Below, in pieces: positions 1-38,973 of a stretch of DNA of 52,113 nucleotides. Made by a program: the position numbers and the translations under genes. The stretch is from a virus. Its lineage: Duplodnaviria; Heunggongvirae; Uroviricota; Caudoviricetes. The stretch lies in IMG/VR virus record IMGVR_UViG_2541047719_000006; one strand, given 5' to 3'. The notes below the pieces were generated by a model. It did not search any database. It worked only from the letters and a program-made list of their open reading frames with translations, and had not been told where the DNA came from. How positions within the stretch are numbered: position 1 is the first letter of the stretch; every line of letters begins with the position of its first letter.

Positions 1-1236
1 CTACGATAACCGCGCATTCAACATAGCTACCTGTTCGTCGTTCATGTCATCAATCCACATACCGTAAATTTCATACACCATCTGCGCAGTTTCATGCCCC
101 ATCTGGCTGGCTATAAATGCCGGGTTCGCTCCTGCCGTCAACAGCCAGCAGGCAAAAGTATGCCGCGTATGGTACGGATTACGGCGGCGAATACCAGCAC
201 GTTTTACTGCTGCATTCCACCTTGCCCCCAAACTGCTTACCGAGTAATAAGGTTTCTGTTTTCCGTTACACACCCTTGGCATGAAAACAAAATGCAGTTT
301 TTGCTTTTCGGTTCTGCCGTACTCCCGATGATAAAAGGTGATTTCGCTTTTGCGATGATGCCCGGTCAGTTTGTATTGCTCCTTCAGTGCTTCAAGAGCA
401 GGCTGCAGTAGTGTTACTGTCCGGATCCCGGCATTTGTTTTTGGGGGACCGAACATATCAAGTATCGTCAGGTTTCTTCTGACATTCACTATTCCCTTTT
501 CGAGATCCACATCCTCCCACGCCAGAGCTGCCAGTTCCCCGTGACGAAGTCCTGAGTAAACGGCAAATTTCCACAAGTTCTGGCTCTGTCCTTTTTCACT
601 TTCCATTAATGCATTGAATTCTGTTTTAGATAACGGATCAGGCTTTATTCTGTTTCGCTGTAATTTTTTTACTCCTTCAAATGGTTTGGTTGATATAAAT
701 CCCGACTGATACGCAAAACGTAACAGCGAACAGAGCAGGGCGATATAGTTATCAACTGTGCGCACGGTTCTTCCTTTTTTGTTGGATCTTGGATTATCCA
801 GGTAAAGCGTTTCTCCATGCAGCAGTTCATTCCGGTAGTTTAAGATATCGCTATAACGAATATGTGATATCGGGGTACTTTCACAAATTATTATTCTGAG
901 TGTTTTTAATTGTGATTTCGTTTTCTTCATTGTGTTTGTTGTTAACTCTGTCTCTTTAATTTTTGTCCAGATATCACAAAGCTCCCCGAACGTTTTTATG
1001 ACTCTCGTTGTCACCATTTTTGCCCCAGTGCTGGACTGGGGAAAACGTCTTAAATACTCAAATTCACCGGAGTTTATTTCATGAACTATCAGCGCTCTTA
1101 AATTTCCGGCCTTTTTAATATTACTGTTTGTAATCTCCCAGCCTTTTAATGTTTCCCGACATCGTTTTCCTCGAAACATGAACCAGATGCGAATGTATTT
1201 ACCTCGAATCTCGACACCTGTTGGTAATTTAGACAT
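1..1236 (-). CDS. intR: Tyrosine recombinase, Rac-type prophage integrase
   Basis: 411-aa ORF; C-terminal R..HxxR..Y integrase motifs (NPYHTRHTFA, MVYEIYGMW); sits at prophage end next to excisionase; ATG at 1234-1236, stop at window edge. Confidence 0.9.
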   Translation of the reverse strand: MSKLPTGVEIRGKYIRIWFMFRGKRCRETLKGWEITNSNIKKAGNLRALIVHEINSGEFEYLRRFPQSSTGAKMVTTRVIKTFGELCDIWTKIKETELTTNTMKKTKSQLKTLRIIICESTPISHIRYSDILNYRNELLHGETLYLDNPRSNKKGRTVRTVDNYIALLCSLLRFAYQSGFISTKPFEGVKKLQRNRIKPDPLSKTEFNALMESEKGQSQNLWKFAVYSGLRHGELAALAWEDVDLEKGIVNVRRNLTILDMFGPPKTNAGIRTVTLLQPALEALKEQYKLTGHHRKSEITFYHREYGRTEKQKLHFVFMPRVCNGKQKPYYSVSSLGARWNAAVKRAGIRRRNPYHTRHTFACWLLTAGANPAFIASQMGHETAQMVYEIYGMWIDDMNDEQVAMLNARLS

Positions 1237-1237
1237 A

Positions 1238-1453
1238 TCATGAGTCTTTGATAAACTGATTTATCTTTGGATAGTTGTACCAGATAATCCCTCGCTTACT
1301 GTCTGGCTTCCCTAAAGGAGATACTCGTTTGAAGTGGAAGCCTTCCACCCAACAGTTCTGGCGGTATGCTTCAATTTGTCTGGCCCCCAGACCAGTGCGA
1401 AGCATCAGGCCGTATTCAACCATCCACTCTTCATTAAAGATTACTTGTGCCAT
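1238..1453 (-). CDS. xisR: Excisionase-like protein (Rac XisR/YdaQ-like)
   Basis: Small ORF immediately upstream of int with 1-nt gap; internal ATG at 1453 preceded by GAGGTGA RBS gives 71 aa; ORF-track start at 1477 is an extension. Confidence 0.7.
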
Positions 1454-1552
1454 CGCATCACCTCTGGCAGGCGCCAATGTTAGACTGAAATTGACGCCCG
1501 ATGTTGATTATTAATAATCAGCTATGAAGTTTTAATTTGAATACAATGCAAT

Positions 1553-1741
1553 TCACGACGACTGAAGTTTCTCGCAATTAAAATTTATCAGTTTTACTTT
1601 CTGCTCTCTGGAAACGCCTGCTTCTTTTTTACCTGAGAGCATTTTTTCGCATTCTGATTTGGTTAATTTTGTTTTTGAGTACCTTGTCCAGTTAGTAGGA
1701 GTGCCACCTTCCTTTTCAATAGTGGCGGTAATTTTATACAT
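1553..1741 (-). CDS. ydaC: YdaC-like small prophage protein
   Basis: ORF 1553..1813; start at 1741 preferred because of GGAGGTG RBS 5 nt upstream; overlaps ralR stop by 8 nt; alternative starts 1753 and 1813. Confidence 0.5.
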   Translation of the reverse strand: MYKITATIEKEGGTPTNWTRYSKTKLTKSECEKMLSGKKEAGVSREQKVKLINFNCEKLQSS

Positions 1742-1928
1742 GAACACCTCCATTATTATTTCCAGTGGTTCGTTTATTCCATCGTTCGAGTGCTTCTTTT
1801 TCACTTCCACCATAGCCGGTTCGGGATTCGCATCCGTTACACTTCGCGCGGTAATATCCTGAAATGGCTTTCACCGTTACTGATGGACAACCACAAAAAG
1901 GGCATGGTTTGACTTTTTCATACCGCAT
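1734..1928 (-). CDS. ralR: Restriction alleviation protein Lar/RalR (type I toxin in Rac)
   Basis: 64 aa from internal Met; CPFCG ... C..C zinc-ribbon-like motif typical of the Lar family; Rac position between recombination module and ydaC. Confidence 0.8.
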   Translation of the reverse strand: MRYEKVKPCPFCGCPSVTVKAISGYYRAKCNGCESRTGYGGSEKEALERWNKRTTGNNNGGVHV

Positions 1929-1991
1929 TGTCTTTTCTCTCATAAAATAAAATTTTGTGATGGCGGTGAGGCTACACCGCCAAAGTAAATA

Positions 1992-3044
1992 TCAGGAGCC
2001 GATATATTCTGGTTTCATATCTGTCAGTGTCGTTTTATACGCCTCATATAATTCACCCAGATGTGGCCGGGCAGCATTCAGCGTATTTTCCAGAGCAGTA
2101 AATTTTTGTTCTGCTTCTGGATCACCTGAAGAAGGTAGGTCATTTATCATCTTCTCGATACGGGCAATAGCATTGAGACGGTGATGACGCTGAACCACTT
2201 TTCCTTTAAGTTCCGTATAGAGAGCGCCAAGTGTATTTTTATGATCTTCCACTTCCTGGCGAAGTGCTGTTGTTTCCCCGGTGCTTTGTGCCTGCTCAAT
2301 ACGTTCACGGAAAGCATCGATCCAGTTTTCCCCGGCATCCTGCTCAATAATTGTTGTTTCACGTTCCACGCGGCAAGCGGAAGTGTTTTTATGTTCCTGA
2401 ACCGGATTAATGATTTTTTCCTGTGGCTCGTCCAGTTCGTCCCTGGTGTACACTCCAAGAATCACTTCGGGGCAATAAAGGCGCGCCCAGCGTTTCAGCG
2501 CCAGATAGGCAAGCTGCTGGCGAGGATCGTCGGCCCATAGCGTTGAATTACGTGTTCTGGCCTGCGCCAGAAGTAATTCCAGTACGCGTGGTTTACTTTC
2601 GCCGCGTAGTGTTGCCTGGACACGAACACCGATCCCGTTTTCATCGGCCAGCTTCCAGCCAGGTACACGATATTCTTTCCCTTTGTCGCTCTTCCTGATT
2701 TCAAATTTCCCGATAATTTTTTCCCACGGCCCGAACCAGTCATATTCAATACGCCCGGTTAGCGGCCCACGAGTACTGATTACGGCATTAACCAGTTGCG
2801 CTTCATATCCGAGCACACCATTCACAACGAAAGTTTTCTGAGCTACTGCGTAAGGGTTCATTTGCCACTGCATCGCCTGCATGGTGATGGCCATGCAGTC
2901 TGATGGATTTCCCCGGAGGTGTTCCGGTACAGTAGCCATGCCGGAAGCCATTACCTGGGAAAATGTCTGAATTGCAGCCAGGGACTGAGGGCTGAAAACC
3001 GCAACATTAGAGTTAATATTTTCTTGTTGAGTTAATTCGTTCAT
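1992..3044 (-). CDS. Single-strand annealing protein, Redbeta/RecT superfamily
   Basis: 350-aa ORF directly downstream of the exonuclease gene; segment QMNPYAVAQKTFVVNGVLGYEAQLVNAVI resembles lambda Bet GLNPW...VVGVDGW core; GAGGAAGG RBS; not the K-12 RecT sequence. Confidence 0.6.
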   Translation of the reverse strand: MNELTQQENINSNVAVFSPQSLAAIQTFSQVMASGMATVPEHLRGNPSDCMAITMQAMQWQMNPYAVAQKTFVVNGVLGYEAQLVNAVISTRGPLTGRIEYDWFGPWEKIIGKFEIRKSDKGKEYRVPGWKLADENGIGVRVQATLRGESKPRVLELLLAQARTRNSTLWADDPRQQLAYLALKRWARLYCPEVILGVYTRDELDEPQEKIINPVQEHKNTSACRVERETTIIEQDAGENWIDAFRERIEQAQSTGETTALRQEVEDHKNTLGALYTELKGKVVQRHHRLNAIARIEKMINDLPSSGDPEAEQKFTALENTLNAARPHLGELYEAYKTTLTDMKPEYIGS

Positions 3045-3055
3045 TGTGTCCTTCC

Positions 3056-6000
3056 TCAGATGCTCAGTGCTTCAAGACGACGAAGATCAAAGTCGTTTAA
3101 TTCGTCGGTATAACTTTCGGTAATCGGTGCTGGCCAGTTGTTTGTCTCCAGGGCTTCGTTTATCTGGCGTAGCGTCCGGCGATATTCCTGTCGACCAAGT
3201 TCCAGGAGTTCCTGCGAGGCTTCCACGACTGCCACCCAGTGATAGCCAGCATCTTTGTTGACGAAGATCCAGAAAAATTTGTCCAGATTTGCCACATCGC
3301 AATACATTGCTGCGCTGAGGTGATAATCACGCTCAATAATTTCACGGTGCAGGCGATCTTTCAGTCGTTCCTGTCGCACATAACCGAGGCTGACTGACTT
3401 CACGTCGGCGCAAATGCTTTCGTATGGCAGCCGGATTTCGATATCAGGACGGACCCTGATTTCCAGCCCGGTTTCTTCATCAAACCCGAAATAGCTGATT
3501 TCAGATTTGCGATCCGGGTGGTTGAGTAGCCTTGCTGCATCAGTATTGTTTTGCAGTGCAGCGTGAATATTTTTTGCCTGTTCATACATATCTGAACTGA
3601 TAAACGTTTTCCCGGCGTTTTCTTCTTGCTGGCGTTTTTGCCAGTCCTCCAGGGTAACCAGTTCCGGGCGGATTTTCCGAGCGATTTCGGTTAATTGCTC
3701 TTTCGTGCCACTGATGTTGTAAGGCAAAGATTTAGCACGTTCTTTTTTCGCCAGTTCTGGATCTACAGTTTCAATTTGCTCCAGAAGTTGCTCCCGTGTT
3801 CCACTGGTTTTCAACAGAGGAGGGAGGTTTGCATTGTATTCTCTAATGCAGGCTTTCATTGCCGATGCAGTATGTTTCTCCTCCTCCGGAATACGCCGGA
3901 ATTCCACCGGAAGCGAACCGTAAAGGATGCCTGTTTCTTCGGCTCCAGCACTTACAGACAGTGGCTGTATAGGAGTGCTGTTGTAGCTTTCGATCCACTC
4001 TTTCATCTGCTCTGGTGTCATCAGTGCTGGCAGACTGGCATTGTGTTTTTTAATGATGGCGATCAGTTCGCTAGAAGTAGTAACCACATATTCAGGAACT
4101 GGTACCGGAATGGCATATTCATCAGCGAATTTATCCGTTTCCAGAACATAGCTGTGAATGATCCGCCCACGCAGCAGTGCATCACTTTCCTCGTTCGGAA
4201 TAGTTCCGGCAATGTGCCGTCCGTGGTAATACATCAGGCTGATACGGGCATCCTTCAGCATCGTGCTGCTTATTCCGTTGGCGGAGTGATAAACCTCGTT
4301 CGGGAGGTTTTCATAGCGGCCAGGCTCGAAATATGACGGCCACATGATTTCAGTTGCTACAGGAGCTGACGCTTCACCAGTTTCATCACTGCAATCACGA
4401 TGCGGATCGCTGCCAGCATTCTCATTGTGCGGATGTTCAGCGCCTTCCATTTCCACCGGATCTTTTTCCTTAGCTTCAACCTGATTCTCTTCATCGAATG
4501 TTTCCTGGTATGTTGCGTCGCCCGTCACCGCCCCACAGTCAGGGCAGTTATCTCCGCCAGTCTGACCGCAGGCATTGCAGACTATTTCCGGTTCCTGTTG
4601 CACTACTGGCTCAGGTTGTTTCACATCCGGGCTGGTTTTTTCCGTTTCTGGCTGGTTCTGGTACACAGAATCGCGAGTCTGGATCCCCTTAACCCATTTC
4701 GGATCGTTCGGGTCGCTAATTCCGTCAACAAATTCACCACGTGATGCAGCAAGCAATTTATCGGCATCGACAGGATTTTTTGATGGAATGTTTTTCCGGG
4801 CTTCATGGAGTTCTGCCCGCAGTTCCTGATATTTCGCATCAACAGAATTTACCTGTGACTGAGCATCCAGCGGCTGCGTGTCCTGATGATGTTTAGTTGC
4901 GTCCGGTTCCATTGTTTCAGCCTCTCCCTGTTCATCTGCCGTTGTTCCAGATGGTTGCGGTTTTTCTTCATCATCCTGTTTTCCTTCTTCTGTTACTCGC
5001 TGCGGCATCGGGGCAGAGGAGCGACCGCAGGCAATATCCACGATTTCCGGATCAGGGTTGGCATGATCGGTTTCAGTCAGTACTTTGTTCAGATATTCAG
5101 TGACGTGCGCGGGGGTGACCTCGATCCCAATTGGTGCTTCTTTTACGGACGCAACCACGATGGCGCGGGAATAATCCAGCCCGCCAGGCATGGTGATGAA
5201 TTTGTCGCGGAAAACAGAAAAGGGCGGTTTATTTTCAGCGATAATTTCCTCAATGCGTTTAGCGTGTGCCGGATGAAGGTTATAGATGTCCACGTCCATT
5301 GAACGGGCCAGTACGCCAGTGGCTACGTCGCGCGCCAGTGACGTAAGATCGTGGACGAAACCTTCGCCGCGATCGGTGAGGTTCCCGCCGCCAGCATTAG
5401 CACCGGAAGCCGTGCGAGTGATGCGTGAAACACGATTACCCTTCATCCACTCTTTTGTCAGCAGTCCTCGATCGGTGTAGTCAGCGTTCAGGTATGCTTC
5501 GAAAAAAGCAGTTAACAGTCCCAAGTCTGAATTACCAGGATTAGGGAAAACTTTGTCAGTGTCACGAACCAGTTTGTGGAGATCGCGAATTTCCAGCGGG
5601 TCGAGCAGGCTGGTTTTGTGGGAAACAGCCAGGGCAGTAACAGCCGGTAGTTCTTCAGCCCGTGCAATGTGTAATGCCTGGAGTTCGCCGCGTGAAACGT
5701 GCGTTACCGGTTTTTCGCTGCCGTGTTGAGCAAGCCAACGAATGGGCAGTTCCTGGCCAGAAATTGGGAGTAGCATATTCTCCTCAATCTCAGTCATGTC
5801 TTCGCCGTTGACGTTGGTATTGCCTTGATAGTGAGCGTTGTCTGGTGCTGCTCCCGGTTTTAGTTCCCATGTCATGGAGTCTTTGCTGAGTTGATAGCGT
5901 TCACTCCAGGTAAAATCGATCTCACCTTCAGCGGGCAGGTCATTAACGACAGGAAAATTCGTGGCAACAGCTTTAAAATAGCTGCTCAGTTTTTTACCTG

Positions 6001-6127
6001 ACTTAACGATCAGGTAGTCCAGAGTGGCACAGGTCGATTCAAAATCGTCACTTGCCCACAGGACGACGTCAGGTTCACCGGATGATTTTTTCGCTTTCCG
6101 TAACAGGAAGAGTGGTTTTGTGCTCAT
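3056..6127 (-). CDS. recE: Exodeoxyribonuclease VIII (RecE-like), mosaic with divergent C-terminal nuclease domain
   Basis: 1023 aa; N-terminal ~590 aa closely match remembered K-12 RecE ([26 protein letters not shown]...); C-terminal region differs and is longer but keeps RecE-like motifs ([24 protein letters not shown]). Confidence 0.8.
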
Positions 6128-6257
6128 TGTTTTTTAACCTCAACTCAGATTAAAATTCGTTTTGTTCAGTGAATGATCTTGCCGGATACACACTGTTCAT
6201 AGCCTGCGCCATACGCAGGCTATTTCTTTCAGATTTCACCTTTTAATTTCATTGCAA

Positions 6258-6503
6258 TCAGAGTTGCCAGAAATCCGGCTTTTTTTCTGCGGGCAGATTC
6301 TTTCCGATATGCACCAGGCTCATTTTTTTGACACCTTCGTGAAGTGTTTTAACGTTGCCTGATGGACCGTCGATATCAACTACAGTGAATGGGGTTTCTT
6401 TATTTTCTGTTTTAATCACGTAGCCAATACGCTTTCCTTCCAGATTAACTTCGTGAACAATGTCATCAGTAGTTACAACAGTGGCTTCATAACTGGTAAT
6501 CAT
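6258..6503 (-). CDS. racC: RacC-like prophage protein
   Basis: Internal ATG at 6503 with AAGGAG RBS gives MITSYEATVVTTDD...; Rac position upstream of recE. Confidence 0.6.
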   Translation of the reverse strand: MITSYEATVVTTDDIVHEVNLEGKRIGYVIKTENKETPFTVVDIDGPSGNVKTLHEGVKKMSLVHIGKNLPAEKKPDFWQL

Positions 6504-6577
6504 GTTTTTCTCCTTAATTAAGGTTGAGCGAATCCCTGCCATTGCTGGCATAAATTCAGTTTCGCATAGTCAGTTAA

Positions 6578-6748
6578 TTAAAGTTCGTGTGCCATCTGGT
6601 CTTTTTCGGCACATATTTCACTACAATATTTTTTCATTTCCGTCGTTGGGATAACTCCACGCATGAAATGAAGTGGTCTTTTAATGCTTTTGCTTTCTTT
6701 AACTTCTTTATCGCAAAGGTGGTAAGCACATTTTATTTTCTTAGTCAT
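6578..6748 (-). CDS. ydaE: YdaE-like small Cys-containing protein
   Basis: 56-aa ORF read by hand ([56 protein letters not shown]), absent from ORF track because <60 aa; start overlaps kilR stop (TGATG). Confidence 0.6.
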   Translation of the reverse strand: MTKKIKCAYHLCDKEVKESKSIKRPLHFMRGVIPTTEMKKYCSEICAEKDQMAHEL

Positions 6749-6969
6749 CACCATGACTCCGCCTTTACAGGTAAACCATCACGACCGAGGAAGACTTTAA
6801 TCATGCAGTCAGTAATGCATGTTTTTGTGGTCAGGTTACGAATATAAAGCTTTCGCTTTTTAATATTGTTTGCCGAGGCAATATATGTCCGGCCGTTATG
6901 AAGAACATAATCACCAGGAGTCACACACTGACGAGGTATTTCATCAGTTCCGAAGTGATGAGCAATCAT
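6748..6969 (-). CDS. kilR: KilR-like cell-division (FtsZ) inhibitor
   Basis: 73 aa from ATG 6969 (GGAG RBS); [24 protein letters not shown]...; position matches Rac kilR. Confidence 0.7.
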
Positions 6970-7460
6970 AATTATCTCCATTTTCACAAATGAACTTTGT
7001 TGATGCGGTGCCTGGTGCCTCCAGGTGACGTTAACCAGTTAACAATTAACGCCGGATAATCCACCCATAACACTGATGCTTTTAACTGTTCCGCGTGCGC
7101 TTAGCCGCATTCACCGCATCACAAAATTCACTTTAAAAAGGGCGGACATCAGCCGAACTTCAAGAAAAAACTGATGCCGCCAAGACTACACACAGCAATG
7201 TCGTTATTTACAACCGGAGGCGCACTCCCACCATTTAAATTTAACAGACAAGACCGACTCTTTATGGATATCGGAAATGCGCCTTCGTGTTGCGCCCAGT
7301 TTTATTTCACCACCTCCGGGCTTCGGTGGTCTCGGCTATACCCCTACAGCGAGAGCTTGTGTTAACATTTCAATACCCTTACAGTTGAGAGTTATTGATA
7401 TGTTGGATGTATTTACTCCATTGTTGAAACTTTTTGCTAACGAGCCACATCGAAAGACTT

Positions 7461-12620: not shown

Positions 12621-13307
12621 ATGACCCCAATAAAAATATTTATGACTATTGCTGATTTCAAACGGCCTAAATTGGAGCTCCCAAACGGGGCAAACAAACT
12701 ACTACTGCACTCTTGCTGTGCTCCATGTTCCGGTGAAGTGATGGAGGCGCTTCAGGCCTCGGGAATCGACTATACCATCTTTTTCTACAACCCGAACATT
12801 CATCCTCAGAAAGAGTATTTAATTCGTAAGGATGAGAATATTCGCTTTGCTGAACAACACGGCGTGCCATTTATTGATGCTGATTACGACACAGACAACT
12901 GGTTTGAACGTGCCAAAGGAATGGAATGGGAGCCCGAGAGGGGGATCCGTTGTACCATGTGTTTTGACATGCGTTTTGAGCGGACAGCGCTGTACGCTGC
13001 TGAAAATGGTTTCAGTGTGATCAGCAGTTCACTGGGCATTTCACGCTGGAAAAATATGCAGCAGGTTAACGACTGTGGGCGGCGAGCCGTCGCGCATTAT
13101 CCGGGCATGGTGTACTGGGATTATAACTGGCGCAAGCAGGGCGGCTCGTCCCGCATGATTGAAATCAGCAAGCGCGAAAAATTCTATCAGCAGGAATATT
13201 GTGGCTGTGTGTATTCTCTGCGCGATACCAATCTACACCGCAAATCTCAGGGACGCCCTCTTATCAAAATTGGTCAACTCCACTACGGTAAAGAAGAGAA
13301 GGAGTGA
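12621..13307 (+). CDS. DUF208/QueH-like epoxyqueuosine reductase family protein
   Basis: Motifs [42 protein letters not shown] match remembered QueH conserved Cys pattern; alternative start 12642; TTGACA hexamer at 12496. Confidence 0.55.
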
Positions 13308-18988: not shown

Positions 18989-19125
18989 AATCTTAACTAC
19001 AATATGATTCATTTTGATGATTGTTTCATAAGGAACAGTGAAGTAAGATCTAAGATGAGTTAAATTTTATACAGTATAATCATAATGTTGCAGCAAGGTG
19101 GTTATAATTGAAAGAATATTTAGAT

Positions 19126-20583
19126 ATGAATACATCTCATGTAAGAGTTGTTACTCATATGTGTGGGTTCCTGGTTTGGCTCTATAGTCTTTCAATGTTG
19201 CCACCAATGGTTGTAGCATTGTTTTATAAAGAAAAAAGCCTGTTCGTTTTCTTTATAACTTTCGTTATATTTTTTTGCATTGGTGGCGGAGCGTGGTATA
19301 CAACTAAGAAATCTGGTATTCAATTACGTACCCGTGATGGGTTTATTATAATTGTAATGTTTTGGATTTTGTTTTCTGTTATTAGTGCATTCCCTTTATG
19401 GATTGACTCAGAACTTAATTTAACGTTTATTGATGCTCTATTTGAAGGGGTTTCTGGAATAACAACAACAGGAGCAACTGTAATTGATGATGTTAGTTCA
19501 TTACCTCGGGCATATTTGTACTATCGGTCACAGTTAAATTTTATAGGTGGCTTAGGAGTTATTGTTCTGGCGGTTGCTGTATTGCCATTATTGGGTATTG
19601 GTGGTGCAAAGCTTTATCAGTCAGAAATGCCAGGGCCATTTAAGGATGACAAACTTACTCCCCGCCTGGCCGATACGTCACGGACACTTTGGATAACTTA
19701 TTCTTTATTAGGTATTGCTTGTATTGTCTGTTATAGACTTGCAGGAATGCCTTTGTTTGATGCTATTTGTCACGGGATATCCACAGTTTCGCTTGGTGGT
19801 TTCTCAACTCATAGCGAGAGTATCGGATATTTTAATAACTATTTGGTTGAGCTGGTGGCTGGTTCTTTTTCCCTGCTATCGGCTTTCAACTTCACCCTTT
19901 GGTATATTGTTATTAGCAGGAAAACGTTAAAACCTTTAATCAGAGATATTGAACTTCGTTTCTTTCTGTTAATAGCCTTAGGGGTGTTCATTGTTACCTC
20001 TTTCCAGGTCTGGCATATAGGTATGTATGACTTGCCTGGAAGTTTTATTCATTCGTTTTTTCTTGCCAGCTCCATGCTCACTGATAATGGTTTAGCTACG
20101 CAGGATTATGCAAACTGGCCCACGCACACGATAGTGTTTTTGCTGTTGTCAAGTTTCTTTGGGGGATGTATAGGTTCAACTTGTGGTGGAATTAAGTCAC
20201 TTCGATTTCTTATACTTTTCAAACAAAGCAAACACGAGATAAACCAGCTTTCTCATCCCAGAGCGTTGTTGAGTGTAAATGTAGGAGGGAAGATAGTTAC
20301 AGATCGTGTAATGAGGTCTGTATGGAGTTTCTTTTTTCTTTATACTCTCTTCACGGTGTTTTTTATACTGGTGTTAAATGGTATGGGATATGATTTTCTT
20401 ACATCATTTGCAACAGTGGCTGCATGTATTAATAATATGGGATTAGGTTTTGGGGCTACTGCATCGTCATTCGGAGTGCTTAATGACATTGCAAAATATT
20501 TAATGTGCATAGCTATGATTCTTGGTCGCCTTGAAATTTATCCTGTTATTATATTGTTTTCAGGTTTTTTTTGGCGCTCCTAA
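19126..20583 (+). CDS. trkG: Potassium uptake protein TrkG
   Basis: 485 aa from ATG 19126 matching remembered K-12 TrkG (MNTSHVRVVTHMCGFLVWLY...); multi-pass membrane protein; markedly AT-rich. Confidence 0.9.
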   Translation: MNTSHVRVVTHMCGFLVWLYSLSMLPPMVVALFYKEKSLFVFFITFVIFFCIGGGAWYTTKKSGIQLRTRDGFIIIVMFWILFSVISAFPLWIDSELNLTFIDALFEGVSGITTTGATVIDDVSSLPRAYLYYRSQLNFIGGLGVIVLAVAVLPLLGIGGAKLYQSEMPGPFKDDKLTPRLADTSRTLWITYSLLGIACIVCYRLAGMPLFDAICHGISTVSLGGFSTHSESIGYFNNYLVELVAGSFSLLSAFNFTLWYIVISRKTLKPLIRDIELRFFLLIALGVFIVTSFQVWHIGMYDLPGSFIHSFFLASSMLTDNGLATQDYANWPTHTIVFLLLSSFFGGCIGSTCGGIKSLRFLILFKQSKHEINQLSHPRALLSVNVGGKIVTDRVMRSVWSFFFLYTLFTVFFILVLNGMGYDFLTSFATVAACINNMGLGFGATASSFGVLNDIAKYLMCIAMILGRLEIYPVIILFSGFFWRS

Positions 20584-20720
20584 TATATGGCTGATTTATA
20601 ATTGTGAGTTTAATATTATATTGACTCACTCATTGATCCAATACCTAACTTTACCAGCAACACCTCCGCCCCCAGTAGCACTGGCTGCTGGGGTGCGTTT
20701 TATTCATAAAGCAAGGCTGT

Positions 20721-21512
20721 ATGAGCGAGAAATTGAAGATCGTCTATCGCCCTTTACAAGAACTGTCTCCGTATGCACACAACGCCAGGACACACAGCCC
20801 TGAGCAGGTGGCACAACTGGTAGAAAGCATTAAGCAATTCGGCTGGACTAATCCGGTGCTGATTGATGAAAAGGGCGAAATTATTGCTGGTCACGGTCGC
20901 GTTATGGCGGCTGAAGTGCTCAAAATGGATTCCATTCCGGTCATCGTTCTGTCTGGTTTGATGGATGATCAGAAAAAGGCGTACCGCCTGGCAGATAATC
21001 GCCTGCCGCTGAACGCTGGCTGGGATGAAGAACTGTTGCGGATGGAGCTGTCGGAGCTAATCAATGCTGATTTTGATATCTCCCTGACAGGATTCAGCCC
21101 GACAGAAATTGATGAACTGTTGACGGATGTTTTGCCAGGTACAGGAAATGAGGAGGAGCCGTACACGACGAAAATTGATACGCCTGTTTATGAGCCGTCG
21201 GGCGATAAACCGGACATCAGTGAGCTGTACGACGATACGAAAACTCAGGAGCTGATCAGCCGGATACGTTCGGCGTCCCTTGAGCCCGATATCGAAAAAT
21301 TCCTCCTGTGCGCGGCAGAACGCCACACGGTGTTTAATTTCAGCAGAATTGCGGACTATTACGCTCACGCCCCCGCTGAAATTCAGTGTTTTTTCGAGGA
21401 GTCGGCGCTGGTGATCATTGATTATCAGCAGGCTATTGAAAATGGATTTGTCCGGATGACGCAGCGCATGGTGGAGATCATGCATGGTGGTGAGGAGGAG
21501 GAATATGCGTGA
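20721..21512 (+). CDS. ynaK: ParB-like nuclease domain protein (YnaK-like, full length)
   Basis: 263 aa; N-terminal ParB/Srx-like segment VYRPLQELSPYAHNARTH ... GHGRVMAA; Rac synteny after trkG. Confidence 0.7.
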   Translation: MSEKLKIVYRPLQELSPYAHNARTHSPEQVAQLVESIKQFGWTNPVLIDEKGEIIAGHGRVMAAEVLKMDSIPVIVLSGLMDDQKKAYRLADNRLPLNAGWDEELLRMELSELINADFDISLTGFSPTEIDELLTDVLPGTGNEEEPYTTKIDTPVYEPSGDKPDISELYDDTKTQELISRIRSASLEPDIEKFLLCAAERHTVFNFSRIADYYAHAPAEIQCFFEESALVIIDYQQAIENGFVRMTQRMVEIMHGGEEEEYA

Positions 21513-22437
21513 TGATTTTTGCGCCTTTATTCTGACTCACGGGCGACCGGACAAAGTTCTGACTTACCGGACGTTGCGTCGTGCTGGCTATACCGGGAAA
21601 ATTTTTATCGTTGTTGATGATGAAGATAAGACACGGCATCAGTACATGGCTGAATTTGGTGAACAGGTGCTGGTGTTTTCCAAAGCCGATATCGCCAGTC
21701 GTTTTGACGAAGCCGATAATTTCGGTGACCGCCGCTCAATTTTTTACGCCCGTAATGCCTGTTTCGACCTGGCAAAACTGGTCGGGTGTAAATACTTCAT
21801 TCAGCTCGATGATGATTATCACGAGTTCCAGTTTCGGGTGGATCGCAACTATGACCAGGCCTATTTTCCGATAAGGAAACTGGATGCGATCCTTTCTGAA
21901 ATGCTGGCGTACTACGAATCAATACCTGCTCTTTCCATCGCTATGTCGCAGGGCGGGGATTTTCTTGGTGACAATGGCGGCCATGCTTCGTGGGTGAAAC
22001 GCAAGGCAATGAACAGCTTTATCTGTTCGGTTGATCGACCGTTCTCATTCATGGGGCGCATTAACGAGGATGTGAATACGTACACGAATCTCGGTCGCTG
22101 TGGTGAATTGTTTATGACGATCGGTGCTGTCCAGTTAGGGCAGAAACAGACGCAGAAAAACAGCGGCGGAATGACCGAGCTGTATCTGGATTCCGGAACC
22201 TACGTTAAAAGTTTTTACTCCGTCATGTATGCGCCGTCGTGCGTAAAAATCTCACTGATGGGTGCCAGCCATAAACGCATTCACCATCAGGTCACCTGGA
22301 ACAACGCTGCAGTAAAAATCCTTCACGAAAAATACAGGAAGAAGACACCCTGCATATCAATAGGGGTGACAAATGATTCCGTATTCGAAAGTCGAGTCTC
22401 TGGCAGCGTGCCGGATGACTGCACAACAAATCGCTGA
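21505..22437 (+). CDS. Hypothetical protein with GT-A glycosyltransferase-like motifs (YdaY-like)
   Basis: Start ATG 21505 after GAGGAGGAGG; FILTHGRP ... IVVDDED ... ARNACFDLAKLVGCKYFIQLDDDY resembles GT2 N-terminal strand and DxD motif; alternative start 21484. Confidence 0.45.
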   Translation: MRDDFCAFILTHGRPDKVLTYRTLRRAGYTGKIFIVVDDEDKTRHQYMAEFGEQVLVFSKADIASRFDEADNFGDRRSIFYARNACFDLAKLVGCKYFIQLDDDYHEFQFRVDRNYDQAYFPIRKLDAILSEMLAYYESIPALSIAMSQGGDFLGDNGGHASWVKRKAMNSFICSVDRPFSFMGRINEDVNTYTNLGRCGELFMTIGAVQLGQKQTQKNSGGMTELYLDSGTYVKSFYSVMYAPSCVKISLMGASHKRIHHQVTWNNAAVKILHEKYRKKTPCISIGVTNDSVFESRVSGSVPDDCTTNR

Positions 22438-22624
22438 CGTTCTGGATGTTGATCTGAACCGACTGAAAGAAAATCGGGAAGCAATGACAGATTTTTATGC
22501 GGCCATCCGTAAGGGCAGAGCGAAAGGTGAAGCCGAGTTACGAGCGGCATTGTTTAAGCTTGCCAGAAAAGGGGATGCCTTTGCTCTGCGCGAACTACTC
22601 AGGGTGGATAAAAATCAGGACTAA
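22373..22624 (+). CDS. Hypothetical small protein upstream of terminase
   Basis: 83 aa; AGGGGTGA RBS; overlaps 3' end of upstream gene by 65 nt. Confidence 0.35.
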   Translation: MIPYSKVESLAACRMTAQQIADVLDVDLNRLKENREAMTDFYAAIRKGRAKGEAELRAALFKLARKGDAFALRELLRVDKNQD

Positions 22625-22627
22625 CTG

Positions 22628-23722
22628 ATGAGCAGACCGGACTGGGGGGCGTTGCAGCAGGAGTATATTGCTGAATACACCCGCTCCGGTATATCTCCGG
22701 TGGCATGGTGTGAAGCAAGGGGACTGAATTACGCAACAGCCCGTCGTTACATCAAAAAACCTCCGAAAAATGCGCAGACAGAAATGCGCAAAACTGCGCA
22801 AAAAAGTGCGCAGAAAAAATCTGCGCAGACTGCACAAAAGCGGAACGAAAAATCTCAGGAAAAAAAGCCAGTATTCGATGCGGGCCTGAATGAGGGCGAC
22901 GCGGAGGAATTTTCGTTCTGTCCCGATGAATTCGGCATTTCTGACCAGCAGGCTAAGTTTGCGATGCTTGTTGCTCAGGGGAAAAAGCCGACAGAGGCGT
23001 ACCGACTAGCCGGTTATGAGGGGCAAGGTGCGACAGCTAACAGCAACGCCAGTCGTATGCTTAGAAATGCCAGGGTTTTTCGCGCTATCAGCTACTTCCG
23101 CAATCAGTACCAGAAACGCTATACCGCAGACCTGGATTTACTGGTGAGTCAGTTGATGGCCATTGTCCTGGCCGACCCCAATCAGCTTGCACAATTTCGC
23201 CGTGTTAACTGCCGTTATTGCTGGGGCGAGAATCATCTCTACCAGTGGCGCGATATAGCAGAATTCGACAAGGCAGCGGCGCAGGCTTCCAGAGATGGCA
23301 AACCCGAACCGGAATATGGAGGCCTCGGCTTTGTTGATAACGCCATACCCAATCCGGACTGCCCGAAGTGCTGCGGTGAGGGAACGGGACAGCTTTATAT
23401 GGCTGATACCACTCTGCTTGATGGGGATGCGCGGCAATTATATGCAGGGGCAAAACTCGGAAAATTCGGCGTTGAGATCCTGCTGGAGGATAAGGCTGCC
23501 GCCCGGCGTGAATTGTTGCGTTTGCTTTCTGCTGGCGGGGCTTTATGTGCAGATAAGCGGCTACAGGAACTGGAAATTGAACGACGCAGAATGGAAAACC
23601 AGAAGCTGCGCAAAGAGATCGAAACGGTGGAAGATAATGAACATCCCCAGCCTGTGGCGATCAATATTAATGTGGTTGATGCCAGAGTAAGGAGTGATGA
23701 AGATGATCTCTCCGACGCTTAA
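22628..23722 (+). CDS. Terminase small subunit
   Basis: 364 aa; segment AKFAMLVAQGKKPTEAYRLAGY typical of TerS; directly upstream of large terminase. Confidence 0.7.
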   Translation: MSRPDWGALQQEYIAEYTRSGISPVAWCEARGLNYATARRYIKKPPKNAQTEMRKTAQKSAQKKSAQTAQKRNEKSQEKKPVFDAGLNEGDAEEFSFCPDEFGISDQQAKFAMLVAQGKKPTEAYRLAGYEGQGATANSNASRMLRNARVFRAISYFRNQYQKRYTADLDLLVSQLMAIVLADPNQLAQFRRVNCRYCWGENHLYQWRDIAEFDKAAAQASRDGKPEPEYGGLGFVDNAIPNPDCPKCCGEGTGQLYMADTTLLDGDARQLYAGAKLGKFGVEILLEDKAAARRELLRLLSAGGALCADKRLQELEIERRRMENQKLRKEIETVEDNEHPQPVAININVVDARVRSDEDDLSDA

Positions 23723-25004
23723 TGTGCCTCAGGCGCGATTTCTTTCAATGCCCCATAAATTTAAAGCCTATATTGCTGGTTTTGGCTCGGGCAAAACATG
23801 GGTTGGGTGTGGCGGCATATGCAAGGGGATTTGGGAGCATCCAGGTATAAATCAGGGATATTTTGCGCCAACGTATCCCCAAATTCGCGATATTTTTTAC
23901 CCTACAGTGGAAGAAGTTGCTGCTGACTGGGGATTGAACGTAAAAATTAATGAGGGAAATAAAGAGGTTCACTTTTATTACGGACGCCAGTATCGGGGAA
24001 CCACTATCTGCAGATCGATGGAGAAGCCACAAACGATCGTCGGTTTCAAAATTGGTAATGCGCTGGTGGATGAACTGGACATTTTGCCGAAGGAAAAAGC
24101 CAGAACGGCGTGGCGCAAGATAATTGCGCGTATGCGTTATAAGATTGATGGACTTCGCAACGGTATTGACGTTACAACCACGCCGGAAGGATTCAAATTT
24201 GTCTACGAGCAGTTTGTTAAAGCCGTGCGTGAAAAAACAGAGCTGGCCTCACTGTATGGTCTGGTGCAGGCATCTACTTTCGATAATGAAAAGAACCTGC
24301 CAGCAGATTACATTCCTTCGCTTCTTGAATCATACCCTCCAGAGCTGATTAAAGCCTATCTTCGAGGACAGTTTACTAACCTGACAAGTGGTACTGTTTA
24401 CCATCAGTTTGACCGGAAACTGAATAATTGCGAAGAAGTGGAGCAGCCAGGGGAGCCGATTTATATTGGGATGGATTTTAACGTTGGAAAGATGGCGGGG
24501 ATCGTCCATGTGCTGCGTTTGGGGCTTCCATGTGCGGTAACTGAAATCATCAATGCCTACGATACGCCGGATATGATCCGCATCATTAAAGAACGCTTCT
24601 GGCTGTATGACGGGAATGATTACCGGAAAGTGAGGGAGATTTATATTTATCCAGATGCTTCCGGAGATTCCAGAAAATCAAGTAACGCAAGTACGACGGA
24701 TATAGCCCAGCTTAAGCAGGCTGGTTTTAACGTTGTGGTGAACAGCTCGAACCCGCCAGTAAAAGATCGCGTTAACTCAATGAATGCAATGTTCTGCAAT
24801 GCCAATGGTGAGCGTCGCTATAAAGTTAATGTGAAGCGTTGTCCGGTATATGCCGAATCTCTGGAGCAACAGGTCTGGGATGATAAGGGGGAGCCTGATA
24901 AAAAATCTGGCAATGATCACCCGAATGATGCCGGAGGTTATTTCATCGTTAAGCAATTCCCTATTGTCAAACCGACCGGAAGAGTCACATCACTTCGGAT
25001 TTAA
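23703..25004 (+). CDS. Terminase large subunit
   Basis: Walker A AGFGSGKT near N-terminus; AAGGAG RBS favours ATG 23703; ORF track start 23694. Confidence 0.85.
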   Translation: MISPTLNVPQARFLSMPHKFKAYIAGFGSGKTWVGCGGICKGIWEHPGINQGYFAPTYPQIRDIFYPTVEEVAADWGLNVKINEGNKEVHFYYGRQYRGTTICRSMEKPQTIVGFKIGNALVDELDILPKEKARTAWRKIIARMRYKIDGLRNGIDVTTTPEGFKFVYEQFVKAVREKTELASLYGLVQASTFDNEKNLPADYIPSLLESYPPELIKAYLRGQFTNLTSGTVYHQFDRKLNNCEEVEQPGEPIYIGMDFNVGKMAGIVHVLRLGLPCAVTEIINAYDTPDMIRIIKERFWLYDGNDYRKVREIYIYPDASGDSRKSSNASTTDIAQLKQAGFNVVVNSSNPPVKDRVNSMNAMFCNANGERRYKVNVKRCPVYAESLEQQVWDDKGEPDKKSGNDHPNDAGGYFIVKQFPIVKPTGRVTSLRI

Positions 25005-36921: not shown

Positions 36922-37619
36922 TGCAGGACATACGACAGGAAACACATCATGAGACGACACGCCTTACTCAGTCAGCCCAGGTGGTGCTCTGGGAAATCGA
37001 TCTGACAGAGGTCGGTGGTGAACGTTATTTTTTCTGTAATGAGCAGAACGAAAAAGGTGAGCCGGTCACCTGGCAGGGGCGGCAGTATCAGGTATACCCT
37101 ATTCAGGGGACGGGATTTGAACTGAACGGTAAGGGTAGTGCTGCCCGTCCGACACTGACGGTCTCTAACCTGCACGGCATGGTCACCGGGATGGCGGAAG
37201 ACCTGCAGAGTCTGGTCGGCGGAACGGTGGTCAGGCGTAAGGTTTACGCCCGTTTTCTGGATGCGGTGAACTTCGTCAACGGAAACAGCGACGCCGATCC
37301 GGAGCAGGAGGTGATCAGCCGCTGGCGCATCGAGCAGTGCAGCGAACTGAGTGCGGTCAGTGCCTCCTTTGTGCTCTCCACACCGACGGAAACGGATGGT
37401 GCTGTTTTTCCGGGGCGCATCATGCTGGCCAACACCTGCACCTGGACCTATCGCGGTGATGAGTGCGGTTATCATGGTCCGGCTGTCGCGGATGAATATG
37501 ACCAGCCGACGTCCGATATCACGAAGGATAAATGCAGCAAATGCCTGAGCGGCTGTAAGTTTCGCAATAACGTCGGCAACTTTGGCGGCTTCCTTTCCAT
37601 TAACAAACTTTCGCAGTAA
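36921..37619 (+). CDS. Minor tail protein L
   Basis: 232 aa near-identical to remembered lambda L (MQDIRQET..., SKCLSGCKFRNNVGNFGGFLSINKLSQ). Confidence 0.9.
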   Translation: MQDIRQETHHETTRLTQSAQVVLWEIDLTEVGGERYFFCNEQNEKGEPVTWQGRQYQVYPIQGTGFELNGKGSAARPTLTVSNLHGMVTGMAEDLQSLVGGTVVRRKVYARFLDAVNFVNGNSDADPEQEVISRWRIEQCSELSAVSASFVLSTPTETDGAVFPGRIMLANTCTWTYRGDECGYHGPAVADEYDQPTSDITKDKCSKCLSGCKFRNNVGNFGGFLSINKLSQ

Positions 37620-37623
37620 TCCC

Positions 37624-38367
37624 ATGACACAGACAGAATCAGCGATTCTGGCGCACGCCCGGCGATGTGCGCCAGCGGAGTCGTGCGGCTTCGTGGTGAG
37701 AACGCCGGAAGGGGAAAGATATTTTCCCTGCGTGAATATCTCCGGTGAGCCGGAGGCGTATTTCCGGATGTCGCCGGAGGACTGGCTGCGGGCAGAGATG
37801 CAGGGTGAGATTGTGGCGCTGGTCCACAGCCACCCCGGTGGTCTGCCCTGGCTGAGTGAGGCTGACCGGCGGCTGCAGGTGCAGAGCGATTTGCCTTGGT
37901 GGCTGGTCTGCCGGGGTGAGATTCATAAATTCCGCTGTGTGCCGCATCTTACCGGGCGGCGCTTTGAGCACGGGGCGACGGACTGTTACACGCTGTTCCG
38001 GGATGCTTATCATCTGGCGGGGATTGAGATGCCGGACTTTCATCGTGAGGATGACTGGTGGTGTAACGGCCAGAATCTCTATCTGGATAATCTGGAGGCC
38101 ACAGGGCTGTATCAGGTGCCGTTGTCAGCGGCGCAGCCGGGCGATGTGCTGCTGTGCTGTTTTGGTTCATCGGTGCCGAATCATGCCGCCATTTACTGCG
38201 GCGACGGTGAGCTGTTGCACCATATTCCTGAACAACTGAGCAAACGAGAGAGGTATACCGACAAATGGCAGCGACGCACACACTCCCTCTGGCGTCACCG
38301 GGCATGGCACGCATCTGCCTTTACGGGGATTTACAACGATTTGGCCGCCGCATCGACCTTCGTGTAA
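37624..38367 (+). CDS. Tail assembly protein K (NlpC/P60 + JAB/MPN)
   Basis: Near-identical to remembered lambda K from MTQTESAILAHARRCAPAESCGF; ORF track start 37582 is an extension. Confidence 0.9.
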   Translation: MTQTESAILAHARRCAPAESCGFVVRTPEGERYFPCVNISGEPEAYFRMSPEDWLRAEMQGEIVALVHSHPGGLPWLSEADRRLQVQSDLPWWLVCRGEIHKFRCVPHLTGRRFEHGATDCYTLFRDAYHLAGIEMPDFHREDDWWCNGQNLYLDNLEATGLYQVPLSAAQPGDVLLCCFGSSVPNHAAIYCGDGELLHHIPEQLSKRERYTDKWQRRTHSLWRHRAWHASAFTGIYNDLAAASTFV

Positions 38368-38912
38368 AAACGGGGGCTGAAGCCATCCGGGCGTTGTCCA
38401 CACAGCTCCCGGCGTTTCGTCAGAAACTGAATGAGGGCTGGTATCAGGTGCGCATTGCCGGGCGTGATGCAGGCGAAAATGAATTATCTGCCCGTCTTAA
38501 TGAGTCGCTGGCAAATGGTGCCGTGATCCACATTGTGCCGCGTCTGGCGGGAGCTAAAAGTGGCGGTGTTTTTCAGGCAGTGCTGGGTGCGGCGCTGATT
38601 GCGGTGGCATGGTGGAACCCTGTGGGCTGGCTGGGTGCCGCGGCTGTATCGGGCATGTATGCGGCAGGGGCCAGTATGATCCTGGGTGGTGTGGCCCAGA
38701 TGCTGGCACCGAAAGCCCGGACGCCCACAGCGACCAGCACGGATAACGGTAAGCAGAACACCTATTTCTCATCACTGGATAACATGGTTGCCCAGGGCAA
38801 TGTTCTGCCTGTTCTGTACGGTGAAATGCGCGTGGGGTCTCGTGTGGTTTCTCAGGAGATCAGCACGGCAGATGAAGGGGACGGTGGTCAGGTTGTGGTG
38901 ATTGGCCGCTGA
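38265..38912 (+). CDS. Tail assembly protein I
   Basis: Matches remembered lambda I (MAATHTLPLASPGMARICLYGDLQRFGRR...). Confidence 0.9.
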   Translation: MAATHTLPLASPGMARICLYGDLQRFGRRIDLRVKTGAEAIRALSTQLPAFRQKLNEGWYQVRIAGRDAGENELSARLNESLANGAVIHIVPRLAGAKSGGVFQAVLGAALIAVAWWNPVGWLGAAAVSGMYAAGASMILGGVAQMLAPKARTPTATSTDNGKQNTYFSSLDNMVAQGNVLPVLYGEMRVGSRVVSQEISTADEGDGGQVVVIGR

Positions 38913-38933
38913 TGCAAAATATTTCATGTGAAA

Positions 38934-38952
38934 CCGCCCTCCGGGCGGTTTT
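38934..38952 (+). terminator. Hairpin with T-run between I and J
   Basis: CCGCCC-tcc-GGGCGG followed by TTTT. Confidence 0.4.
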
Positions 38953-38973
38953 GTCGTTTATGGAGCATGACGA

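Follow-up and report, generated by a model that had tools for sequence, protein, structure and literature searches.

Why should a prophage of Escherichia coli keep a gene for a ParB-like protein and a gene for a putative glycosyltransferase (GT), overlapping each other, just ahead of its terminase genes? The question is raised by positions 20,721 to 22,624 of the IMG/VR virus record IMGVR_UViG_2541047719_000006 (Caudoviricetes), a stretch of 52,113 nucleotides, referred to here as the window, which represents a Rac-like lambdoid prophage of E. coli. On its plus strand, as are all features given below, the gene for full-length YnaK, a ParB/Srx protein of 263 amino acids (aa; 20721-21512, from the list of open reading frames (ORFs) and a Pfam ParB_N match), is followed by the gene for a 310-aa protein (21505-22437), an 83-aa ORF (22373-22624) and the terminase. 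An initial annotation, made from the letters alone, had described three overlapping ORFs directly upstream of the terminase genes, in agreement with our coordinates. We found that two of them, ynaK and the GT gene, form a unit which is conserved in viruses of bacteria and archaea. Whether this pair is a late-expressed, post-replicative module that glycosylates the phage's own DNA around packaging is, in our estimate, evenly balanced.

The glycosyltransferase and its obligate neighbour

The 310-aa protein matched the Pfam family PF20691 (TAGT, TET-Associated Glycosyltransferase) with 121.4 bits (E 6.5e-35; curated cut-off 27.5 bits). The match spans residues 15-229 of the 317-aa form, which is read from the first ATG of the ORF (21484-22437); the 310-aa form begins at the ATG at 21505, the start also chosen by the Prokaryotic Genome Annotation Pipeline (PGAP). 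The protein also matched phrog_842 ('beta-glucosyl-HMC-alpha-glucosyltransferase'; E 9e-104), and recent PGAP annotation calls it a 'GREB1-related protein'. In a structure predicted with AlphaFold2 (AF2) using 45 homologues (predicted local distance difference test, pLDDT, 73; predicted template modelling score 0.74), the Rossmann-like N-terminal half was confident, with pLDDT above 85 over the N-terminal ~150 residues. The top 50 PDB matches of this model in Foldseek were GT-A enzymes, with GalNAc-T2, GpgS, SpsA, SunS and glycogenin among the best neighbours, and viral TAGT models in BFVD matched it with template modelling (TM) scores of 0.72-0.75. At least 8000 relatives were scored. Residues D102-D103-D104, the DxD motif, were invariant in the homologues from bacterial and archaeal viruses, and the motifs NEDV, TQxxGGMT, GTYxKxFY and RxHH showed little or no variation in a range of viruses that includes both enterobacterial prophages and a haloarchaeal virus. 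The conserved core comprises residues 1-285; the final 25 residues are a low-confidence, E. coli-specific tail overlapped by the 83-aa ORF. The isoelectric point (pI) is 8-9.4. Judging from these matches and the predicted fold, we assign the 310-aa protein to the GT-A glycosyltransferases of the TAGT family. The initial annotation had proposed a GT-A fold in the N-terminal third of the protein from the motifs FILTHGRP, IVVDDED, ARNA and IQLDDDY, all of which are present in the translation. Pfam, the AF2/Foldseek results and the invariant DDD bear out the fold, which the structure prediction suggested there as a check recovered, whereas the proposed extent was too small, with the GT domain covering ~90% of the protein.

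We scanned IMG/VR with a divergent TAGT reference and considered the best 80 loci; the E. coli sequence as a reference gave near-identical prophages only. The partner gene was directly upstream of the TAGT gene in 73 of these loci, directly downstream in 3 and fused to it in 1, and the other 3 were contigs beginning at the GT gene and hence uninformative; that is, the partner was adjacent or fused in 77/77 informative loci. In the reverse scan, the C-terminal domain (CTD) of YnaK alone was the query, again from a divergent reference, and 78 loci were obtained. A TAGT gene followed immediately downstream in 73 and within 1 kb in 4, and one contig left no room for it, so that all 77 loci with room had a TAGT gene at most 1 kb downstream. 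The conserved unit is two genes, and their pairing is obligate in both directions.

The pair is co-inherited in an intimate arrangement. In one locus (L117, 7287-8855), the hidden Markov models (HMMs) of both proteins matched a single ORF of 522 aa, in which the partner C-terminus runs straight into the GT N-terminus; the joint lies at the usual termini of both parts, and a frameshift artefact is possible. Separate genes mostly overlap by 8-14 nt at the start and stop codons, and by up to 29 nt. Such overlapping pairs were found in Lactobacillus gasseri phage phi jlb1, in L. delbrueckii phage c5, in which cos is directly followed by the pair, in Nocardia phage NTR1, in the haloarchaeal virus HHTV-2 and in metagenomic phages with three unrelated terminase types; the GTs of the four named viruses are 40-47% identical to the E. 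coli GT. In the window, the ynaK stop and the GT start share 8 nt (ATGCGTGA), and a Shine-Dalgarno-like stretch, GAGGAGGAGGAA (also given as GAGGAGGAGG), precedes this overlap. The ratios of non-synonymous to synonymous substitution rates (dN/dS) of YnaK and the GT against enterobacterial orthologues were 0.06-0.13, and both genes are under strong purifying selection. Because both proteins match curated families and have these low dN/dS values, the locus is more than a product of chance, and the pairing of a ParB-like protein with a GT beside the terminase, which the initial annotation had pointed out, proved to be a conserved and selected arrangement.

The downstream neighbours of the pair are overwhelmingly terminases, and in most genomes the pair lies immediately before the genes for the small and large terminase subunits (TerS and TerL). 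This position, the location next to cos in c5 and the historical annotation of the YnaK domain as a 'ParB-like nuclease', which the initial annotation had followed, would fit YnaK being a packaging accessory by itself, either a nuclease or a pac/cos-site factor comparable to the HNH proteins that assist terminases, with the GT as an unrelated neighbour. We consider this explanation very improbable, since each gene is almost always found next to the other, YnaK-like partner and GT are naturally fused in one case, the pairing persists in replication clusters and in partners without the ParB domain, and no nuclease motif was identified in YnaK.

The third ORF does not share in the conservation. 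The initial annotation had suggested a three-gene unit, which we rejected because the 83-aa ORF resembles a segment of the TerS family (phrog_309, E 8e-23), does not occur between the TAGT and TerS genes in phi jlb1 and does not accompany the pair in other phages. It belongs to the packaging module of the prophage and not to the conserved pair.

Two further observations concern the distribution of the GT. In L. delbrueckii phages phiLdb, Ld17, LL-Ku and Ld25A, the TAGT gene is in two pieces, has become shorter or survives as no more than 45 residues within a gene annotated as 'ParB nuclease'; some lineages are evidently losing the module. Vibrio phage pv27 (L089, 5887-6888), one of a group of ~191-kb jumbo phages, encodes a 333-aa TAGT of the same clade (45% identity) within a replication cluster, with genes for a primase, an exonuclease and a helicase beside it; nothing nearby is annotated as ParB, and a 139-aa ORF lies just upstream.

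The two parts of YnaK

The N-terminal ParB/Srx nucleotide-binding domain (NBD) of YnaK (aa 1-135; 20721..21125) was recognised by several methods. YnaK scored 28 bits against Pfam ParB_N (PF02195; cut-off 26.3); PDB profile matches to Noc/ParB/Spo0J were limited to the NBD, and Foldseek matches to Noc, PadC, ParB, KorB and sulfiredoxin (Srx) covered only ~140 columns. The NBD also matched phrog_498, which consists of ParB-DNA methyltransferase fusions (E 3e-50), and the N-terminal region of MTase_II in PADLOC (E 5.7e-37), the sole PADLOC match of YnaK. Box II reads GHGR in place of GERR, and this box varies across the YnaK family. The AF2 model has the NBD at residues 1-135, a disordered segment at 136-156 and a helical region at 172-255; no helix-turn-helix (HTH) DNA-binding domain was found after the NBD by Pfam, PDB profile search or Foldseek. 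A role in partition was rejected: unlike the partition proteins Spo0J, Noc and KorB, YnaK has no ParA (there is no parA gene in the prophage) and lacks both an HTH/parS-binding domain and a GERR catalytic box, and it is strongly acidic (pI 4.5) and encoded in a phage late operon.

The remainder of the protein (21126..21512), delimited by conservation among viral homologues, consists of a linker motif (aa 147-159) and a helical, acidic CTD (aa ~172-255). The linker motif, P-Y-T-T-K-I-D-T-P-V-Y-E-P in YnaK, has the family consensus Y-T-x-K-x3-P-x-Y-E-P and is strikingly conserved between bacterial and archaeal viruses; two of its tyrosines, Y148 and Y157, never vary and P155 hardly does, and the segment containing them is predicted to be disordered. 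The C-terminal half had no match in Pfam, the PDB profile search or Foldseek, weak matches of the CTD to Phage_Gene47 and armadillo repeats being judged noise. In a library of 1.84 billion proteins, the C-terminal half was found in 1189 clusters at 50% identity, nearly always as ParB_N plus CTD or as the CTD alone; longer proteins were again ParB_N plus CTD, with extended N-termini. We also considered a metal enzyme and rejected it: position 202 is not always His, RL and RF variants being found as well, and the invariant polar residues Y148, Y157, R201 and D234 form no recognisable metal site.

Which part of YnaK is the constant partner of the GT is indicated by eight short partners of 123-148 aa (L095, L096, L100, L115, L141, L148, L164 and L166), which match HMM positions 133-260 only. 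Since these retain the linker motif and the CTD alone, the constant partner is this region and not the ParB domain. The ParB NBD is present in ~80% of partners and is an optional N-terminal addition. The initial annotation had taken the ParB domain as the element coupled to the GT; the conserved element is the CTD, which it had not noticed.

DNA as the putative substrate

DNA is the substrate of the characterised phage TAGTs. That of T2/T6 adds glucose onto glucosylated 5-hydroxymethylcytosine (5hmC) in DNA (PMC13216743, PMC13390438), and phage GT-A enzymes decorate 5hmC produced by phage TETs (PMC8256090; bioRxiv 10.1101/2023.12.21.572611). For the partner there is also a precedent: in 2026, phage ParB homologues composed of an NBD, a linker and a CTD, with no DNA-binding domain, were reported to activate cognate 5mYOX thymine dioxygenases specifically on dsDNA (PMC13229309), and Aravind and co-workers, as cited in PMC8256090, had earlier put forward the idea that during packaging, ParB guides modifying enzymes to the DNA. 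It is because of the known TAGT substrates and these precedents that we read the pair as a DNA-glycosylation module, at the even odds stated above; the DNA-modification role suggested by the initial annotation is thus the one best supported by context, and it remains putative. In such a module, the GT would be the catalytic subunit, a metal-dependent (DxD) GT-A enzyme transferring a sugar from a nucleoside diphosphate (NDP)-sugar. The linker motif and CTD of YnaK would bind, activate or position the GT, the two proteins perhaps forming a complex, and the NBD might couple the GT to DNA or to packaging, on the model of the ParB proteins that activate thymine dioxygenases of phages and presumably as in the fused methyltransferases.

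The comparison with these activators can be taken further. YnaK in its AF2 model shows the architecture described for ParB176 of the 5mYOX176/ParB176 system (PMC13229309), with NBD, flexible linker and CTD and without HTH, the two being compared by description. Both are encoded beside a post-replicative DNA-modifying enzyme, a putative one in the case of the GT, and in both the canonical CTPase residues appear dispensable or degenerate. The partner of YnaK is a TAGT (77/77 loci) and not a dioxygenase, and in PMC13229309 the ParB-dependent dioxygenases were linked to amino-acid/kinase hypermodification genes whereas those linked to GTs were ParB-independent. The phage ParB-methyltransferase fusions (phrog_498; PADLOC MTase_II; N6_N4_Mtase) have an N-terminal domain close to the YnaK NBD (E 3e-50, 6e-37) and are likewise encoded ahead of the terminase. 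In two contigs, L094 and L125, a fusion of ParB_N and an N6/N4 DNA methyltransferase (5930-7108 and 5988-7277, respectively) lies immediately upstream of the pair, giving two ParB-headed modification cassettes in tandem ahead of the terminase. The difference is that the catalytic part is fused in the methyltransferases, while the YnaK module would recruit a separate GT via a dedicated CTD.

The prophage GT shares family, GT-A fold, DxD motif and phage origin with the classical TAGTs, i.e. the T2/T6 enzyme and the GT-A enzymes acting on 5hmC or 5-hydroxymethyluracil (5hmU) in 5mYOX clusters, and TAGTs of phages often lie near ParB and terminase genes, as it does. Its clade is only ~23-25% identical to TAGT homologues of T4-like Aeromonas phages and, unlike the classical TAGTs, has a conserved C-terminal extension (TQxxGGMT...GTYxKxFY...RxHH), is always accompanied by a YnaK-CTD partner and, in the neighbourhoods scanned, is unaccompanied by a 5mYOX or a deoxynucleoside monophosphate hydroxymethylase.

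This last feature is the first of several that weigh against DNA as the substrate. No TET/JBP protein, thymidylate-synthase-like hydroxymethylase or DNA methyltransferase was found in the prophage, and the annotations of phi jlb1 and c5, whose complete genomes are compact, include no acceptor-generating enzyme. We scanned neighbours of the pair from ~80 diverse contigs against Pfam (106 proteins upstream, 113 downstream and 102 others of medium size). The 25 commonest families listed for each set, a list from which rare cases or a divergent 5mYOX could escape, included neither TET_JBP nor a thymidylate-synthase family. A dioxygenase hidden between or beside the pair was also considered and rejected, the intervening ~270-aa genes in six contigs being second TAGTs and not TET/JBP. 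To our knowledge, unmodified DNA has no hydroxyl of the kind used by known TAGTs. Contigs with a GT but neither 5mYOX nor ThyS were seen by the authors of the largest GT survey as less clearly connected with DNA modification, and ~65% of phage GT contigs, which had no recognisable base-modifying neighbour, were set aside there. As for YnaK, its ParB CTPase box lacks the catalytic Glu, and its acidity together with the absence of an HTH means that direct DNA binding is not evident. Finally, several L. delbrueckii phages retain the module in a degenerate form, and it is therefore dispensable.

If the pair does act on phage DNA, a TET/JBP or hydroxymethylase step may be missing altogether. The GT might use a canonical or host-methylated base as its direct acceptor, or the CTD might supply a new activity that generates an acceptor or presents the base; we hold this view only tentatively and with more doubt than belief. 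The module also occurs in variant forms. The TAGT gene is doubled in seven contigs, six with the order ParB-TAGT-TAGT and a seventh with TAGT-partner-TAGT, and it can be followed by a gene for a short-chain dehydrogenase/reductase (SDR)-type sugar-nucleotide epimerase/dehydratase (six proteins) or a radical S-adenosylmethionine (SAM) enzyme (five). In L164 (2398-6140), a 572-aa CofD-like transferase and a MobA-like nucleotidyltransferase are inserted between the partner and the GT, and the partner variants without an NBD sit between a family-A DNA polymerase gene and a beta-clamp gene. These variants resemble extended forms of a sugar-transfer pathway with a link to the replication or packaging of DNA, and the radical-SAM protein could provide an alternative acceptor-generating or sugar-tailoring step. 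The SDR genes or the ~315-aa radical-SAM genes lie between TAGT and TerS in L103, L111, L113, L132, L118, L119, L139 and L143. The upstream regions of L092-L171 also contain PAPS-reductase-domain proteins in three contigs and ASCH domains in two upstream neighbours; both domains were reportedly proposed by Iyer et al. 2013 as parts or readers of DNA-modification systems.

The absence of a recognised source of DNA acceptors would be expected if the substrate were a protein. The GT may modify YnaK itself, on the two invariant Tyr or on Thr/Ser of the Pro-rich linker in a glycogenin- or mucin-type reaction with YnaK as acceptor or scaffold, or it may modify a packaging or virion protein. The invariant Y148 and Y157 and the nearly invariant P155 lie in a disordered segment which is kept in the NBD-less partners, GalNAc-T2 and glycogenin are among the top PDB structural neighbours of the GT, and the L117 fusion and the tandem TAGTs would fit priming followed by extension. 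In addition, GREB1, a eukaryotic relative of TAGTs, O-GlcNAcylates a protein (PMC7968844), which also weakens the argument from family membership to a DNA substrate. Nevertheless, we consider protein glycosylation, the strongest of the alternatives, unlikely. The resemblance to GalNAc-T in Foldseek is generic for GT-A (TM ~0.4), characterised phage TAGTs act on DNA, the NBD of YnaK is common to DNA methyltransferase fusions, the neighbours are polymerase, clamp and terminase genes and not capsid or tail genes, and no role is apparent for a glycosylated acidic ParB-like protein.

The GT family, the ParB fold and the gene annotations were known beforehand, and the pair itself is no discovery. 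The TAGT family is said to have been defined by Iyer et al. in 2013 (NAR 41:7635), a paper which may already depict ParB-TAGT operons. In the literature consulted, we came across no account or test of the TET independence of this clade, of its invariant partner being an uncharacterised domain and not ParB as such, or of their reciprocal, occasionally fused coupling across bacterial and archaeal viruses, nor any functional account of ynaK or experimental link between ParB and TAGT. TAGTs are usually viewed as the second step of a pathway, acting after a dioxygenase or hydroxymethylase has made 5hmC or 5hmU. Here, a large conserved TAGT subfamily has no detected first step and instead a dedicated, unstudied partner domain, and the pair may explain part of the GT contigs set aside in the survey mentioned above. 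Should DNA be glycosylated without a TET or hydroxymethylase step, or by way of a new one, prophages that are common and inducible in E. coli would harbour a novel DNA-modification chemistry; the pair is carried in about 1/6-1/3 of sequenced E. coli as well as by viruses of Firmicutes, Actinobacteria and haloarchaea. As the carriers include inducible lambdoid prophages of ordinary E. coli, the glycosylation target and the coupling to packaging are open to genetics and nucleoside mass spectrometry, and the answer bears on restriction evasion, on failed sequencing or cloning of phage DNA and on ParB-fold domains as accessories of DNA modification.

The module in the E. coli prophage

The segment 20600-22700 is 100% identical to sequences of APEC O1, 042 and K56-43-un, and the region had matches in 1608/5426 complete E. 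coli genomes, 867 of them at 80% query coverage or more. The gene order runs from the lysis genes through trkG, a hairpin, ynaK, the 310-aa GT gene and the 83-aa ORF to TerS, TerL and the portal gene. The trkG moron (PF02386) occupies 19108-20583. Between it and ynaK lies a terminator-like, GC-rich hairpin (20670..20693) with a 10-bp stem, 7 G-C pairs and a T-rich tail, which marks the trkG end; transcription of the module past the hairpin presumably reflects read-through by antiterminated late transcription, and the pair would accordingly be expressed late.

The neighbourhood of a moron might instead suggest a conflict function with a target other than the phage's own DNA, in which the GT marks or hypermodifies incoming phage DNA such as the 5hmC or glucosyl-5hmC of T-even phages, depletes NDP-sugars or modifies a host defence component. 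The prophage also carries the conflict genes sieB, ralR, hok and doc, the T2/T6 TAGT extends an already glucosylated base (PMC13216743), and the GT survey raised the idea that prophage GTs act on invading genomes. We judge such a function improbable. The hairpin separates the module from trkG, the module genes appear from their arrangement to be translationally coupled to TerS, and neither the GT nor the 83-aa ORF had a match among the defence components of PADLOC-DB v2. Moreover, the pair stands first in the late or packaging operon of virulent phages, of cos phages and of an archaeal virus, and we know of no archaeal host of such viruses that meets hydroxymethylcytosine phages.

The relation of the locus to K-12 differs in part from that given in the initial annotation, which had the genes truncated or pseudogenised there. 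The truncation of ynaK is real, the gene being shortened to 87 aa and abutting ydaY. In the intact prophage ydaY sits between the tail tube and tape-measure genes, and this junction shows that the GT gene, together with the genes from the terminase to the tail tube, has been deleted in K-12 rather than pseudogenised.

At its 3' end, the GT gene shares 65 nt with the basic 83-aa ORF, or 23 nt if the PGAP start of this ORF at 22415 is used. The ORF is followed by TerS (22628-23722; PF03592, phrog_51) and TerL (23694-25004; Terminase_6N/6C). The 83-aa ORF and TerS are in one frame, split by a TAA and one codon (window 22622-22630), and we suspected a split TerS gene. This was rejected, as the stop is kept in 69/69 relatives in which the flanking anchor sequence was found; 7 of these 69 have a second stop (TAACTAATG). 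PGAP calls the TerS gene of APEC O1 (L001, 22029-23123) a pseudogene with an 'internal stop', and the 364-aa ORF is open in the window.

Some observations concern other parts of the prophage. In the early/middle region, a gene at 12621-13307 encodes a QueH-type epoxyqueuosine reductase (PF02677, E 2e-65). E. coli normally relies on QueG, so that this is a gene of the tRNA-queuosine pathway on a phage; since no DpdA/TGT-like gene was seen in the prophage, the QueH gene gives no indication of 7-deazaguanine modification of DNA. At its left end (positions 1-6127), the window is not colinear with APEC O1, the RecE-like ORF having 1023 versus 866 aa and the RecT-like ORF 350 versus 269 aa; the window therefore comes from a different strain with the identical ParB-TAGT segment. 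Positions 37001-41000, which by position correspond to the tail genes that run in APEC O1 from the tape measure to the J region, have a G+C content of 0.57-0.62 against ~0.45-0.50 in the remaining prophage and may be of mosaic origin.

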